DNA from: an uncultured Clostridia bacterium
GTDB taxonomy: Bacteria; Bacillota; Clostridia; Christensenellales; UBA1242
Direction: 5' to 3'
DNA length: 64,000 nt
Assembly (NCBI GenBank): GCA_946496065.1
Contig: CAMMFF010000006.1
Coordinates: forward strand, 3,216-67,215
Made by a program: the position numbers and the translations under genes. Under the pieces are notes generated by a model. The model did not search any database. It was not told the DNA's origin and was given only the letters and a program-made list of their open reading frames with translations. This document shows positions 3,680 through 20,081 of this stretch, in pieces. Positions within the stretch are counted from its first letter, which is position 1. Each line of letters starts with the position of its first letter.

Positions 3680-3736
3680 TCACAATATATTGTGTATTAT
3701 GTTGCATAACACAACAATCTAAAGTGTAATACGCAA
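3680..3736. repeat. Tandem palindromic element, NrdR-box-like (copy 1)
   Basis: Perfect palindrome CACAATATATTGTG followed by TTGCATAACACAA...GTGTAATACGCAA; related to 9127-9160 and 20026-20081. Confidence 0.55.
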
Positions 3737-7162: not shown

Positions 7163-7356
7163 TTAATGCCTCCGCTTTTTGAATATTATGTTTAAATATA
7201 ACATATAAAACAAAGTAAGTCAACAAATTGAGGGTTTTGTCATTCGTCAAAATTCGCGCATACACAAAGTGATGAAACATGTAAAAATCATTTGGAAAAG
7301 AAAATTTTGTATGCTAAAATAAGAAAAGTCCAAAATGGACCATTAAGGAGAAAATT

Positions 7357-8199
7357 ATGATTAAAATCATCGTTGATAGTACGGCATATACTCCAAAAGA
7401 ATATGCTGAAGCAAATGATATAACTGTTATTCCACTTAGAGTTTTATACAAAGACCAAGAGTTTGATGAAGGGTATCCTGGAACATATGATGCCTTTTTT
7501 GAAGATTTCACAAAGACAAAAGTTTTTCCAAAAACAAGCCAACCTTCTTTGGAAACTTTCATTGAAGAATATGAAAAAGCCATTGATAAGGGAGATGAAG
7601 TCATTGTTTTCACAATCAGCAGCACCCTTTCTGGCACTTATAGTGTTGCTTGCCTTGCAAAAGACCAATGCAAAGATCCAAGCAAAGTTTATGTGATTGA
7701 TTCACAAGGAAACACCCAAACAGTTTTGGGATATGTAATGGAAGCGGTTAACATGAGAAATGCCGGTGCCACTTGTGAAGAAATCATCAAACGTATTGAA
7801 AGCCTTATTCCAAACAGTGCAGTTTCTTTCATTCCTGACACTTTGGAATATCTCGCAAAAGGTGGAAGAATTGGAAAAGTCACCGCCACAATAGGTTCAA
7901 TTTTGAAAATTAAACCAATAATCACCTTTAAACAAGGGATATTATCCGACAAGAAAAGCATTGGTCTTCAAAAAGCAATGAAAGACCTTATTGCTTCTAT
8001 CCCTGAAAAAATAAAAAGATTGTTCATTATTCATATTGCCAACACAAAATTTTTTGAAATGCTAAAGAAATTTGTTTATGAATATCTCGCAAAACGCCCA
8101 GACAAAAATAAAATTGAAGTTTATGAAGGTGAAGTGGGTCCAGTTAATGCTGCACACGTTGGCCCAGCAATCGGTCTTGCATGGATTGCTGAATCATAA
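7357..8199 (+). CDS. DegV/FakB family fatty-acid binding protein
   Basis: IVDST, PKTSQPS, ISSTLSGTY, YLAKGGRI and HVGP motifs. Confidence 0.93.
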   Translation: MIKIIVDSTAYTPKEYAEANDITVIPLRVLYKDQEFDEGYPGTYDAFFEDFTKTKVFPKTSQPSLETFIEEYEKAIDKGDEVIVFTISSTLSGTYSVACLAKDQCKDPSKVYVIDSQGNTQTVLGYVMEAVNMRNAGATCEEIIKRIESLIPNSAVSFIPDTLEYLAKGGRIGKVTATIGSILKIKPIITFKQGILSDKKSIGLQKAMKDLIASIPEKIKRLFIIHIANTKFFEMLKKFVYEYLAKRPDKNKIEVYEGEVGPVNAAHVGPAIGLAWIAES

Positions 8200-8388
8200 T
8201 CTGTCAGCTTTTCCGCTTTGTTTTTTTGAAGATTAATAAAAACAAGAGTTTCTCTTTTTAGACATTGTTTTGTTAATAAACAACCTTCAGAAAGTTGTCA
8301 TCAATTTTAGGTTCTTGAAAAAAGAACTATTTTCCTAATGCAATCTATGTTATAATGTCAATAACAAAATAAAAATTGGAGGATTAAA

Positions 8389-9126
8389 ATGATAAAGAAA
8401 ACAGCAATAATCATTGGTGCTTCAAGTGATATCGGACTTGAAACTGCAAAACATATGGCTCAAGAAGGATTTAATTTGGCACTTACATACAACTCAAATC
8501 AAGTTGATTTTGAAAAAGAAATTGAAAACAAGAAAAACGTTGAAATCAAAAGTTATAAACTTGATTTATGTCAACCTGCACAAATTAAGAAGGTGTTTGA
8601 AGAAATGGAACATGACTTCAAATATTGGGATACTTTGGTTTTTTGTTCAGGAGTCGCCCAAAAAAGGCAACTGATTTTTGATGTGTCCGATGAAGAAATC
8701 GACAATCTGTTTGAAGTAAACATCAAATCTGCAATCAGATGCATAAGAGAATTCACAAAGCGCACAATAAACAAGAACCCTGCAGACATAGTTTTGATTG
8801 GTTCTTTCGTCAACAAAAACGGCTGTTCCTGTGAAAGTGTTTACACAGCAACAAAAAGTGGACTTTCCGGCTTGTGCAAATCATTGGCAAGCGAACTTGG
8901 AAATCTTGATGTGAGAATAAATGTTGTTGCACCTGGCTTCATCGACACAAAAATGAACAACAATCTTTCACAAGAAGAAAAAGATGAATTTTGTGAAATT
9001 ACCCCTCTCAAAAGACTTGGAACAACAGATGACGTTGCAAACGCAGTTGCGTTTTTGTCAAGTGATAAAGCATCTTTCATCACCGGTCAAACCTTGTATA
9101 TAGATGGTGGTTTAGTGCTTGAATAA
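8389..9126 (+). CDS. SDR family oxidoreductase (FabG-like)
   Basis: IGASSDIG, YTATK catalytic motif, VAPGFIDT, ITGQ...DGG. Confidence 0.9.
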   Translation: MIKKTAIIIGASSDIGLETAKHMAQEGFNLALTYNSNQVDFEKEIENKKNVEIKSYKLDLCQPAQIKKVFEEMEHDFKYWDTLVFCSGVAQKRQLIFDVSDEEIDNLFEVNIKSAIRCIREFTKRTINKNPADIVLIGSFVNKNGCSCESVYTATKSGLSGLCKSLASELGNLDVRINVVAPGFIDTKMNNNLSQEEKDEFCEITPLKRLGTTDDVANAVAFLSSDKASFITGQTLYIDGGLVLE

Positions 9127-9160
9127 TTGCATAATACACAACATCTTGTGTGATATGCAA
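9127..9160. repeat. 34-bp palindrome with NrdR-box-like core (copy 2)
   Basis: TTGCATAATACACAA-CATC-TTGTGTGATATGCAA. Confidence 0.6.
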
Positions 9161-9307
9161 TCTAATTTTGAAACTTTTGATAATTTTTGTTATTTTGAAT
9201 TTTTTTTGCTTTTGTTGGGTTTTATTTGTATTTCGTGTCGAAATGTGATATAATAACAACGTATTTTGAAGATTTTTTAATTTTACGAAACGAGAAAGGA
9301 GCAATTT

Positions 9308-10504
9308 ATGGCAAAACAAAATGCTTACGAATTTAACAATCTGACAAAGGCTCAACAAGATTGTTTATCACTTATTGAGTCTTTGGGAATTTATGAACTC
9401 AGAGCTCTTGCAAGAGTTTTTGGCGACAATTCCCCTACCACATTAAAGAGAAATGACCATATCTCTATTGTCATGAACAAAATCATTTCTGGAGAAGATT
9501 TGAAACCAATTCCTCTCAGACAAGGCCGACCATATAAAGAACTCAGCAACATTGAAGGCATTTTGGCAGAGCTTTCTCAAATCACGGGAAAGGACTATTC
9601 CTTGAAGTCTAACCAACAAAGAGGAACAAATCGTTTGCAAAAAGTTGTCACCTTCAGACAAATGGAAGATGATGTGATTAAAAAGAAACTCTTTCCAATC
9701 AAAGTTAAAGGGATACTTTGCGAAAGAAACGAAAAAGAATTTTTCTTCTACAACCAACATAATTCCGAGAAAAAAGGTTTTGTTTTGGTTAAAAAGAACA
9801 TGGACACAAGACTTAAGCCTTATGACTATGTTGTCGGAACTGCAGTCATTATGAATGAGGAAAAAGATTACATACTTGACAGCATTGAATATCTCAACTT
9901 CCAAAATTATCAAAACTATCAAGACATCACAAACGAATATGAACAGACTGTTCCAACCCAAAAACTTGTTTTTGAGAATAACGAAATTGTTTTGGGAAGC
10001 AGATATATGTTGAAACAAGGCAAGTTCATTGATAACATTGACAAATTCAAAAATTTGCTTAAGAAACTCAATGAAAACAAGATAATCACTTTGGGAATCA
10101 TTCCAAATGTGATGTTTGAAGACCAGGAAGCAATCAAAAGTTTGGGATTCAACAATATGTTCATTCTCAATTACAAAGATCGTCCACTCTCCGCATATGA
10201 AACAATGCTCATGGTCATTGAGCACATCAAACGTTTGCAACAACAAGGTTTGAGAGTTGCCTTGTTTGTGCAGGATATAACCACCTTGGCAAACGATATT
10301 GATTTCGCATTCAAAACAAACACAAAAGTTCTCATGGGACACACAGAAAATGCTGTTGACATAATTAAACAACTTATGCTTTTGGCCAAGGCCGGTGGAG
10401 AACACAAACACACAACAATTTTCACAACCCTAGACGAATCAGATATGTTTGACCAAATGTATGTTTCAGCTGTATACAAAGTTTCAAAAAAGATTGAGTT
10501 ATAA
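9308..10504 (+). CDS. Rho termination factor homologue with degenerate ATPase domain
   Basis: Rho-N-like IYELRALARVFG..SPTTLKR; C-terminal VIEHIKRLQQQG.RVALFVQDITTLA...TIFTT aligns by eye with Rho VIEKAKRLVEH..DVIILLDSITRLA...TIIAT; no GKT Walker A; strong RBS. Confidence 0.75.
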   Translation: MAKQNAYEFNNLTKAQQDCLSLIESLGIYELRALARVFGDNSPTTLKRNDHISIVMNKIISGEDLKPIPLRQGRPYKELSNIEGILAELSQITGKDYSLKSNQQRGTNRLQKVVTFRQMEDDVIKKKLFPIKVKGILCERNEKEFFFYNQHNSEKKGFVLVKKNMDTRLKPYDYVVGTAVIMNEEKDYILDSIEYLNFQNYQNYQDITNEYEQTVPTQKLVFENNEIVLGSRYMLKQGKFIDNIDKFKNLLKKLNENKIITLGIIPNVMFEDQEAIKSLGFNNMFILNYKDRPLSAYETMLMVIEHIKRLQQQGLRVALFVQDITTLANDIDFAFKTNTKVLMGHTENAVDIIKQLMLLAKAGGEHKHTTIFTTLDESDMFDQMYVSAVYKVSKKIEL

Positions 10505-10538
10505 GATTCATCGCACAAACAATTGTCATTGCAAATAG

Positions 10539-10574
10539 GCGTTTTTATGAATTCATAAGAACGCTTTGTTTTTT
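10539..10574 (+). terminator. Intrinsic terminator after the rho-like gene
   Basis: GCGTTTTTATGAA/TTCATAAGAACGC inverted repeat followed by a T-rich tract. Confidence 0.6.
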
Positions 10575-10651
10575 GTTTGACTTTATATGTCTAAATTTTT
10601 ATACTTAATAATGATTTTAAGAGCAACCTCGCCCATTCAACTGGAGGTATA

Positions 10652-11565: not shown

Positions 11566-12066
11566 ATGAAAGGAAGAATGTTTGGAATTAAGAAAAGTCT
11601 GCTGTTGAAAATAACGGCGATTTTTCTTTTTTTATGCTTTGCTGTCGCAACCTTTTTCGCATTTTACTCCCTAAAAATTCCAGACCTTTGGTTCTATAAC
11701 TTTTGCATCTCTCTTGGGCTGTTTCAAATTGTCAAAGGCTTTTTCTTTAAACTTGACAGTGTCCTTTATATAGGTTTTTTGCTTCTGTTTATTGGACTTG
11801 CCGGATATCTTTTTTTGTTTACAGAAACTTACAATTACTCCCCATTTTTCATCTCATTGGCATTCATTTTGGCATCTATTTTCACCTTCATTTTCACCGA
11901 ACAAAACTTTCATCTCATATTTGCTTATTCGCTAATTTTCGTGACTATTCTTGCTCTTTTGCTGATAAAAAATTTTATAACATTGTCTATTTTTATTGCT
12001 TTTATATCTCTGTTTTTGGTATTATTAGTTGTAGAAATATTTTATGACAAAAAATGGAGAAAGTAG
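11566..12066 (+). CDS. Hypothetical multi-pass membrane protein
   Basis: About six hydrophobic segments; overlaps the next gene. Confidence 0.65.
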   Translation: MKGRMFGIKKSLLLKITAIFLFLCFAVATFFAFYSLKIPDLWFYNFCISLGLFQIVKGFFFKLDSVLYIGFLLLFIGLAGYLFLFTETYNYSPFFISLAFILASIFTFIFTEQNFHLIFAYSLIFVTILALLLIKNFITLSIFIAFISLFLVLLVVEIFYDKKWRK

Positions 12067-20025: not shown

Positions 20026-20081
20026 CTCCTATATTTTGTGTATTATGCATTGCATACTACAATACATATGGTATTATTCAA
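20026..20081. repeat. Tandem palindromic element, NrdR-box-like (copy 3)
   Basis: CTATATTTTGTGTATTATGCA-TTGCATACTACAATACATATGGTATTATTCAA; shares TTGTGTATTATG with copies 1 and 2. Confidence 0.5.

Follow-up and report, generated by a model that had tools for sequence, protein, structure and literature searches.

A very diverged Rho homologue without a Rho-type ATP site in an uncultured Clostridia bacterium

The gene described here is the open reading frame (ORF) at positions 9308..10504 of a 64,000-nucleotide stretch of DNA from an uncultured Clostridia bacterium (contig CAMMFF010000006.1, positions 3,216 to 67,215). The whole stretch, which has a G+C content of 0.342, is referred to as the window. 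By profile comparison and a predicted fold, the 398-residue product of the gene was confirmed as a true, very diverged homologue of Rho, and a Rho-type ATP site is impossible in it. It is the sole Rho-like gene of its genome. The gene replaces rho rather than accompanies it, and is regarded as the lineage's own rho in transformed state, not as an extra copy. We consider it probable (about 0.6) that the lineage's own rho became a motor-less protein which, judging from its sequence, would bind nucleic acids.

Homology to Rho and loss of the ATPase motifs

The gene and the domains predicted in its product are the following.

9308..10504, + strand: coding sequence of the motor-less Rho homologue, 398 residues, stop codon included (from the ORF list)
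9365..9493, + strand: helix-hairpin-helix (HeH) module of the Rho_N type, residues 20-62 (from conservation and Pfam Rho_N in relatives)
9518..9538, + strand: AT-hook-like R-Q-G-R-P-Y-K, residues 71-77 (from conservation and a predicted flexible loop)
9695..9907, + strand: OB-fold of the Rho RNA-binding-domain type, residues 130-200 (from hhalign and VIA-align)
9986..10501, + strand: RecA-like domain derived from the Rho ATPase domain, residues 227-398 (from alignments and fold)

Single-sequence searches of Pfam, NCBIfam and the PDB sequences (phmmer) gave nothing significant for the 398-residue protein, and the Rho homology was therefore tested by profiles and folds. The sole Rho-named match was a weak one to paralog_Rho2 (NF041509; E 0.066, 12.5 bits, residues 302-372), no other Rho model of NCBIfam being found at E<=10; the score defined for functional Rho (curated cut-off of TIGR00767 / NF006886) was not reached. 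In a collection of 5.8 billion proteins, 159 homologues were detected at E<=1e-3. The 120 homologues listed were 386-460 residues long and showed 97-100% query cover and 41-99% identity, and the three named ones are annotated 'hypothetical protein' in Candidatus Caccovivens or in metagenome-assembled genomes of Clostridia. The ESM Atlas yielded scores of at most 0.83, taken as leads only, in clusters annotated 'hypothetical protein' with Rho_N or Rho_RNA_bind shares of 16-18%.

Further analysis made use of A1, made of 42 homologues of the 398-residue protein; A2, made of six canonical clostridial Rho from sister families of the same order; and A4, a profile of 110 degenerate sequences of the superfamily. 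When the A1 profile was run against all PDB sequences, the 11 best matches were Rho (best E 1.2e-3), and profile positions 253-372 aligned to residues 199-319 of E. coli Rho (HMMER). Profile-profile comparison of A1 with A2 (hhalign) gave a probability of 93% and an E-value of 2.9e-7 over 240 columns, placing residues 133-375 onto Rho 77-344. The AlphaFold2 model built on A1 reached a mean predicted local distance difference test (pLDDT) score of 84. With this model, Foldseek returned only Rho chains in the first 49 ranks (E down to 1e-15, probability 1.00, about 410 aligned columns). Comparison with 24 Rho entries by VIA-align gave Z 20.3 and a root-mean-square deviation of 3.9-4.4 Å over 258-273 residues within model residues 120-398, while the next fold class, the F1/V-type ATPases, did not exceed Z 15.8. 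Rho stands clear of generic RecA-like ATPases because the OB fold was matched too. Bona fide rho genes were matched by the A4 profile as well (E about 1e-35 to 1e-43), in positions identical to those of the Rho-model matches; in one genome of the order, for example, its match coincides with a Rho-model match of 7e-185 (G026:C4). The homology to Rho proposed in a preliminary description of this DNA is confirmed by these results, Rho being the top match in both the profile search and the structural search.

All peptide strings quoted in that description are present in the translation of the ORF, namely IYELRALARVFG (residues 28-39), SPTTLKR (42-48), GRP (73-75), IVLGSRYMLKQGKFID (227-242), PNVMFED (266-272) and FVQDITTLA (320-328). 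The N-terminal Rho signature, the OB-type segment and the colinearity of the C-terminal region with Rho, which it had read from the letters, were all recovered by alignment. The motif I[YF]ELR..AR..G..SPT..K aligned with the N-terminus of canonical Rho (MAFFT), and Rho_N was matched by 79 of the 110 superfamily members, the window protein alone giving no Pfam match. Residues 133-200 aligned to the OB fold of clostridial Rho (hhalign), the VIA-align alignments begin near model residue 120, equivalent to residue 36 of E. coli Rho, and Pfam Rho_RNA_bind was found in 43/110 members; G135, D173, G177 and N197 are invariant in the OB part of A1. The C-terminal region was colinear with Rho in the three alignments described below and showed a RecA-type fold by VIA-align and Foldseek, and Pfam ATP-synt_ab still matched in 3/110 members.

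Rho is an ATP-driven ring helicase. Its ATPase domain is its most conserved part and is highly conserved among functional Rho; the key regions of this domain are Walker A and Walker B, the Q- and R-loops, the catalytic Glu, the Arg valve and the Arg finger (PMC11347177). These regions were mapped by a HMMER profile against E. coli Rho, by hhalign against the six clostridial Rho and by a MAFFT alignment of 22 sequences, the residue numbers of E. coli Rho being counted from the HMMER profile alignment. Walker A, PPKxGKT, aligned to KQGKFIDNI, with N243 in place of the Lys and I244 in place of the Thr. The DERPEE segment aligned to NVMFED in all three alignments, so that the catalytic Glu (E211) is replaced by V268 and the Arg valve (R212) by M269. 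Walker B, LLDSITRLA, aligned to FVQDITTLA, in which D265 is replaced by Q322 and an Asp (D323) follows one position later. The end of the chain at residue 398 corresponded to E. coli Rho residue 345 in the 24 Rho entries (VIA-align), and the canonical segment ...KRIFPA...SGTRREELL has no counterpart in the protein (MAFFT). The Arg finger, which we take to be R366 of E. coli Rho, lies within the missing segment. With the three alignments in agreement, the earlier claim that every ATPase motif was lost and that the chain ends before the Arg-finger region is borne out.

The remaining loops were less uniform. The length of the Q-loop is kept, and in two of the three alignments K340 coincides with the Q-loop Lys/Arg, namely with K283 of E. 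coli Rho (HMMER) and with an Arg of clostridial Rho (hhalign); in MAFFT it is shifted by one. The R-loop segment is two residues shorter and without Lys (MAFFT). The P-loop segment is variable even within the close family. A search for GK[ST] was done by a relaxed scan of 262 proteins, in 65 of which it occurred anywhere in the chain, and by inspection of the aligned segment in every sixth A4 row; none was found at the aligned P-loop place in these 19 rows, and one short relic was seen in P0224. Since the motif residues are replaced and the Arg-finger segment is missing, the protein fails as a functional Rho on four of the features tested, though it is clearly Rho-derived.

An NTP-driven motor with a non-canonical nucleotide site was also considered. 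In its favour, some polar residues near the former active site are conserved in the close family (R232, N267, E271, D323, D332, K340, H345, D379 and D382). Against it stand the replacement of the Walker A Lys and Thr, the catalytic Glu, the Arg valve and the Walker B Asp, the absent Arg-finger segment, the poor conservation of the P-loop segment in the family and the rarity of ATP-synt_ab matches, which together make it very improbable. A complex prediction for two copies of the protein (A1) scored 0.02 against a mark of 0.42; having been run without controls, it is uninformative either way on oligomerisation.

Distribution of the family and gradient of degeneration

The genome (1.109 Mb in 14 contigs, 93% complete) was searched for a second, canonical rho, as suggested in the preliminary description. 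Pfam Rho_RNA_bind and TIGR00767 (E<=0.001) had no match anywhere in it, and the family profile had a single match. The genus was sampled by this genome and 24 others, 25 in all, to which 7 were added from a second draw, giving 31 others. Rho over the model cut-off was found in none of the 25 (0/24 others), while the A1 family was present in 22/25 (21/24 others); the further 7/7 genomes showed the same pattern, without canonical Rho and with the family. Sixteen genomes from 16 other families of the order gave the reverse picture, with canonical Rho over the cut-off in 12/16 and the A1 family in 0/16. No genome of this first sample carried both canonical Rho and the A1 family.

In the second draw, which comprised 300 genomes of the order, Rho exceeded the cut-off in 211/300 and the Rho model matched at E<=1e-100 in 244/300. 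All 13 genomes of the family to which the window belongs (this one included) had no Rho match at E<=1e-100 and matched the A4 profile at E 1e-69 to 1e-106. Altogether 43/300 genomes matched A4 at E<=1e-5 without a strong Rho-model match; of those outside the family of the window, G031 and G101 were the two looked at closely.

These counts decide on one function proposed earlier, that of a dominant-negative or regulatory subunit mixing into canonical Rho hexamers. Such a role is plausible in principle for a ring protein, and hetero-hexamers of two Rho copies have been discussed (PMC11347177). As there is no canonical rho in this genome or in the 31 other genomes of the genus, and as the two forms were never seen together, it is excluded for practical purposes. 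The other two roles proposed there, an RNA-binding regulator and an ATP-independent terminator, stay hypothetical.

Some further matches in these genomes deserve mention. In Rho-less control genomes TIGR00767 still gives matches, presumably via F1/V-type ATPase subunits; none was seen in the present genome and only tiny, P-loop-sized ones in its genus relatives, and the genome may be devoid of an F-type ATP synthase. The weak matches that the family profile gave in G012 and G014 were traced to NusA, hit by cross-match of its S1/OB part, and both genomes were counted as being without the gene. The genome G014, which is 97% complete and has no Rho-like gene, contains a 134-residue ORF in which a Rho_N-like helix-hairpin-helix precedes a basic NKGRRNR stretch (L036 1264-1668, - strand). 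It matches the family profile at E 1.4e-9 over positions 7-61 and adjoins an ORF resembling XRE-type regulators; a remnant standing alone and a Rho_N protein of phage type are two possible explanations for it.

Among 1.84 billion cluster representatives, which were searched exhaustively, 145 (of clusters at 50% identity) matched at E<=1e-3 and 62 at E<=1e-10. When 95 clusters were compared with NCBIfam, many weak Rho-model matches were obtained and none at the cut-off, the best being that of P0233 (464 residues) with 297.6 bits against a cut-off of 315. Comparison of the motifs allowed the forms to be ordered as follows.

Step 1: canonical Rho (from the motif table)
Step 2: G031 and G101, of another family, with GKT kept, the catalytic Glu replaced by Ala and the Q-loop deleted
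Step 3: P0233, with the P-loop gone, GEFPEE for DERPEE and the Walker B Asp replaced by Asn
Step 4: L027 and L028, from two sister genera of the window's own family, full-length (~470 residues) and without P-loop
Step 5: truncated forms of 360-400 residues, the window protein included

The 398-residue protein stands at one extreme of this long series of degenerate forms. The Rho-like genes of G031 and G101 (L029 and L030) are of another degenerate type, with DARPEE or NARPEE and an altered Arg-finger segment, and the one in G031 matches the Rho model at only E 1e-44; the sequences suggest that Rho has decayed more than once in this order.

A maximum-likelihood tree of 69 rows was calculated by a quick search; being unrooted and with long branches, it cannot alone give the order of events. 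The 16 canonical Rho formed one side of a branch with a support of 94, and the ten sequences of the window's genus all fell in one starred group together with other truncated forms. The tree agrees with a single vertical origin, without proving it. Canonical Rho of the sister families shares the HeH and G(R/A)PxK signature with the degenerate forms.

Conservation, maintenance and possible function

The distribution of conserved positions along the protein is the reverse of that in canonical Rho. Mean pairwise column identity in A1 was 0.79 for residues 20-62 and 0.77 for residues 63-100, in comparison to 0.44 for both the OB and the RecA-like parts. Across the 110 sequences of the superfamily only L31, R32, G73 and R74 are invariant, and A35, R36, G39, S42, P43, T44, I55, P75, K77, G135, G172, D173 and G230 are nearly so. 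In canonical Rho (A2) most of the invariant columns are located in the ATPase domain. By this pattern, selection is now concentrated on the N-terminal HeH module and the GRP motif, and not on the OB or RecA-like parts.

The stretch R71-Q-G73-R74-P75-Y-K77 agrees with the definition of an AT-hook by its GRP core, its basic flanks and its unstructured nature. G73 and R74 show no variation among the 110 superfamily members, in which P75 and K77 are conserved to at least 90%, and the pLDDT falls below 50 for residues 69-75, which predicts a flexible loop. At the equivalent place, after the same HeH signature, canonical DERPEE-bearing Rho from at least five sister families carry RGRPPK, KGRPPK or AGRPPK. 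Because the GRP motif is present in the canonical sister Rho too, the front end of the protein is best seen as the inherited nucleic-acid-binding module of the order's Rho. The N-terminal helix bundle of Rho is said to carry positive charge and to help the primary RNA-binding site (PMC11347177).

It is rather doubtful, though arguable from the sequence, that the protein has shifted from RNA to AT-rich DNA and acts as an architectural or regulatory DNA-binding protein, either nucleoid-associated-like or a transcription factor. HeH (SAP-like) and AT-hook modules typically bind DNA; the GRP core is invariant with basic flanks in a low-confidence loop, the strongest conservation is found in the HeH/GRP module, and the window is poor in G+C. 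By definition an AT-hook has a GRP core and basic flanks (PMC4615771) and binds the minor groove of DNA (PMC4615771, PMC11354804). However, some AT-hooks bind RNA (PMC4615771), and the same RGRPPK occurs in ATPase-intact canonical Rho of the sister families, whose substrate is RNA.

For the preferred reading, that of a motor-less nucleic-acid-binding protein, the following course may be proposed. A vertically inherited rho would have turned into a pseudo-enzyme. In the family of the window the ATPase residues would have been lost first, the ~470-residue full-length forms surviving in two sister genera, and in the genus of the window the C-terminal ~75 residues with the Arg-finger segment would have been cut off next. 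The HeH module, the AT-hook-like loop and the OB fold may together bind nascent RNA or AT-rich nucleic acid, and the RecA-like body may serve as a scaffold, possibly for oligomers. The protein would then modulate transcription or the fate of RNA, instead of translocating on RNA to dislodge RNA polymerase; without translocation, an effect on transcription would have to be brought about by nothing but binding or else through contacts with the transcription machinery.

A wider reading can be offered tentatively, namely that Rho was exapted from a termination helicase to an ATP-independent factor in a whole clade of reduced-genome gut Clostridia, where it would do the motor-independent part of Rho's job. 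The HeH and AT-hook front end might attach to nascent RNA, to AT-rich DNA or to RNA polymerase, and so bring about, for example, pausing, an allosterically inactivated elongation complex or silenced AT-rich transcription. If this were true, the protein would be a natural separation-of-function variant showing the abilities of Rho without translocation.

Maintenance of the gene was assessed in the genus and from the signals surrounding it, which are the following.

9226..9254, + strand: putative sigma-A-type promoter (read from the sequence)
9226-9231, + strand: -35-like hexamer TTGTAT, weak (3/6 match)
9236-9242, + strand: 0A-box-like TGTCGAA in the promoter spacer (read from the sequence)
9246-9254, + strand: extended -10, TGaTATAAT (read from the sequence)
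9295..9301, + strand: ribosome-binding site AAAGGAG, 6 nucleotides ahead of the ATG (read from the sequence)
10537..10576, + strand: intrinsic-terminator-like hairpin of 13 pairs (10537-10566) followed by a T-run, 33 nucleotides past the stop codon

The matches in 22/25 genomes of the genus were all uninterrupted ORFs of ~370-410 residues, even at 41-70% identity; the TAA flagged as internal in G009 and G307 proved to be no part of the real ORFs, both of them intact. At the base composition of the window, a run of 398 codons without a stop has a probability of about 1e-12. Among eight orthologues the ratio of nonsynonymous to synonymous differences per site (pN/pS) was 0.27-0.55, with pS at 0.64-0.79, and the true ratio is lower since pS is saturated. 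That the gene is maintained, as had been supposed, is supported by ORFs which have stayed intact although the genus is diverged, and by a pN clearly lower than pS. For most pairs dS was saturated or undefined (pS 0.62-0.79), and a proper dN/dS, as proposed in the preliminary description, was not obtained.

Of the expression signals claimed there, the ribosome-binding site is strong and the terminator-like hairpin is present. The putative sigmaA promoter stands as to its extended -10 and the TGTCGAA in its spacer and is weak in its -35, which matches in only 3/6 positions and is the reason why the promoter does not appear in the list of the consensus scan. Contigs of metatranscriptome libraries from four runs of one study carried the region with 0 differences, the whole ORF included, as in X1 (7283-10523) and X2 (9200-10539). 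These RNA-library contigs are a hint of transcription of the gene. The contigs of two RNA libraries stop at 10523 and 10539, around the terminator, although contigs cannot prove a 3' end.

The opposite reading is a decaying relic: Rho-dependent termination would have become dispensable in shrinking genomes, and the gene would be eroding toward loss under weak or incidental constraint. The stepwise series from intact Rho through motif loss to truncation fits this course, as does the recorded loss of Rho in small AT-rich genomes (PMC11347177). The gene is also absent from 3/25 genomes of the genus (completeness 73, 94 and 97%), and since two of these are nearly complete it must be dispensable in some lineages. 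Divergence within the single genus is very large: the ten copies of one genus span a mean tree path of 2.02 changes per site, in comparison to 1.11 for 16 canonical Rho from more than 10 families. Its dN of 0.23-0.55 exceeds that of the SDR gene (0.17-0.30) and of lgt (0.13-0.31) in the same genomes, so that the rate of evolution of the Rho-like protein is about double that of the neighbouring genes. Nevertheless, the uninterrupted ORFs in all carriers with their very low probability by chance, the low pN, the N-terminal 80 residues at 77-79% pairwise identity with G73 and R74 invariant in 110 clusters, the gene's own promoter-like site, ribosome-binding site and terminator, and its presence in RNA-library contigs all speak for constraint. 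A relic is therefore judged unlikely.

The fast evolution, the large divergence, the saturated dS and the absence from some genomes weigh at the same time against a functional motor-less protein, and several other points have to be added to them. RNA or DNA binding, the oligomeric state and any link to RNA polymerase are all inferred. In the OB fold, EKEFFFY stands for GYGFLR, with one aromatic kept and the Arg replaced, and the Tyr of DVYVS is replaced by Leu (hhalign, MAFFT); with the RNA-contacting residues that we assume here, only about half of the aromatic positions seem to be kept. Orthology with canonical rho rests on distribution and shared motifs and not on synteny, as the gene order differs: canonical rho adjoins pyrG in the sister families, and the order SDR gene, Rho-like gene, lgt is found in 8/10 loci of the genus. 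Finally, the RNA-library contigs may contain DNA, they show neither ends nor strand, and a single study supplied all four runs.

The motor was removed and the rest kept in a clade of at least 145 sequence clusters at 50% identity. Provided that the protein is active, it isolates motor-independent functions of Rho, such as nucleic-acid binding or perhaps contacts with the transcription machinery. Natural intermediates are available, from a kept P-loop with the Glu lost, to a lost P-loop, to truncation. If it is only a slowly dying relic, the series would be a step-by-step record of an important helicase being dismantled during genome reduction. For annotation, such genomes would be scored as 'Rho-less', and the gene is labelled hypothetical.

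The TGTCGAA of the promoter is not enriched in the window, where 10 copies were found for 7.3 +/- 2.7 expected (22/100 shuffles reach 10). Upstream of the orthologue in 4/10 loci of the genus (L001, L002, L003 and L007), TGTCGAA, 3 nucleotides and TGnTATAaT occur with identical spacing, which puts TGTCGAA 10 nucleotides ahead of the extended -10. Only this positional conservation in orthologous promoters is suggestive of a Spo0A box. The genome encodes Spo0A, with a Spo0A_C domain within a 282-residue open frame, and two shorter open frames of 134 and 128 residues match only the C-terminal DNA-binding domain of Spo0A; the three matches (L017-L019) are located outside the window at G000:C1:3357-3665, 112093-112395 and 86581-86883. 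As a matter of context, rho expression is tied to sporulation control in B. subtilis (10.1101/2023.12.01.569620).

Further upstream, at 9128-9159, just past the stop codon of the SDR gene and ahead of the promoter, an inverted pair of the 14-mer TGCATAATACACAA was noticed. Similar pairs are present at two other intergenic sites of the window (20036-20064 and 3690-3716). With up to 3 mismatches the 14-mer has 30 matches in the window for 14.0 +/- 3.8 expected, a number reached by 0/100 shuffles. Related copies are found at the equivalent place upstream of the gene in the relatives L002-L008, inverted except in L008 where they are direct; the pair could be a terminator, an operator or a member of a small repeat family. 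On the opposite strand of the Rho-like gene lies an ORF of 322 residues (9443-10411, - strand), unusually long for DNA of 34% G+C. In the ORF lists of nine relatives' loci (150-residue minimum) no antisense ORF overlaps the gene, and that of the window is therefore probably a chance shadow ORF. At position 9318, in an A-rich run near the start of the coding sequence, one contig (X4, depth 6.8) is one base short; this was not seen in the other three runs and is probably an assembly or sequencing error. Parts of the 7-kb region, such as 11616-11849, were without contig cover in all four runs, which is not evidence of silence.

Comparison with known proteins

Canonical Rho (E. coli, PDB 1PV4/3ICE/5JJI; TIGR00767, NF006886) has the same architecture of N-terminal helix bundle, OB fold and RecA-like domain; the N-terminal sequence signature is shared with clostridial Rho, and the position of K340 with the Q-loop Lys/Arg in two of the three alignments. 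What sets the present protein apart from canonical Rho is the loss of the P-loop, the catalytic Glu, the Arg valve, the Walker B Asp and the ~75 C-terminal residues in which the Arg finger lies. Neither Rho model gives it a significant score, its conservation pattern is inverted, with the N-terminus above the ATPase domain, and it evolves far faster.

The likeness to AT-hooks consists in R-Q-G-R-P-Y-K with its invariant G-R, in a flexible loop beside the helix-hairpin-helix, with the exact RGRP core in relatives. Unlike them, the motif is a predicted one, present in a single copy in a bacterial Rho-derived protein whose ancestral context is that of an RNA-binding factor.

The NF041509 family 'paralog_Rho2' (Rho short form, 360 residues) is likewise a short Rho-family protein, yet the score obtained here, 12.5 bits, is far under its cut-off of 628 bits. 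We infer that it corresponds to the 'Group B/Type 4' Rho of PMC11347177, described there as a second copy without N-terminal domain in which the catalytic residues are kept. The window protein shows the reverse, a retained N-terminus together with the loss of the catalytic residues.

The closest precedent is that of the Rho-like proteins of Actinomycetota (Baekduia, Conexibacter and relatives), which the supplement of PMC11347177 notes in two actinobacterial classes, with Val or Ala for the catalytic Glu, reportedly without Q- and R-loops, 449-472 residues long and judged probably not to be functional Rho. A full-text literature search for a published Walker-less Rho family found only this actinobacterial note. 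Both groups are ATPase-degenerate, a shared kind of change and not common descent: as the phylum differs (Bacillota here), the origin is independent. In the quoted passages of the supplement the actinobacterial proteins are not reported as truncated, and neither P-loop loss, nor a conserved GRP motif, nor a large radiation with intermediates is mentioned. In place of the missing loops reported there, the Q-loop length and a Lys may persist here. The Bacillota family is an independent and more extreme instance, in which the P-loop is gone, the C-terminus is truncated and a large radiation with living intermediates has kept the HeH and GRP parts conserved.

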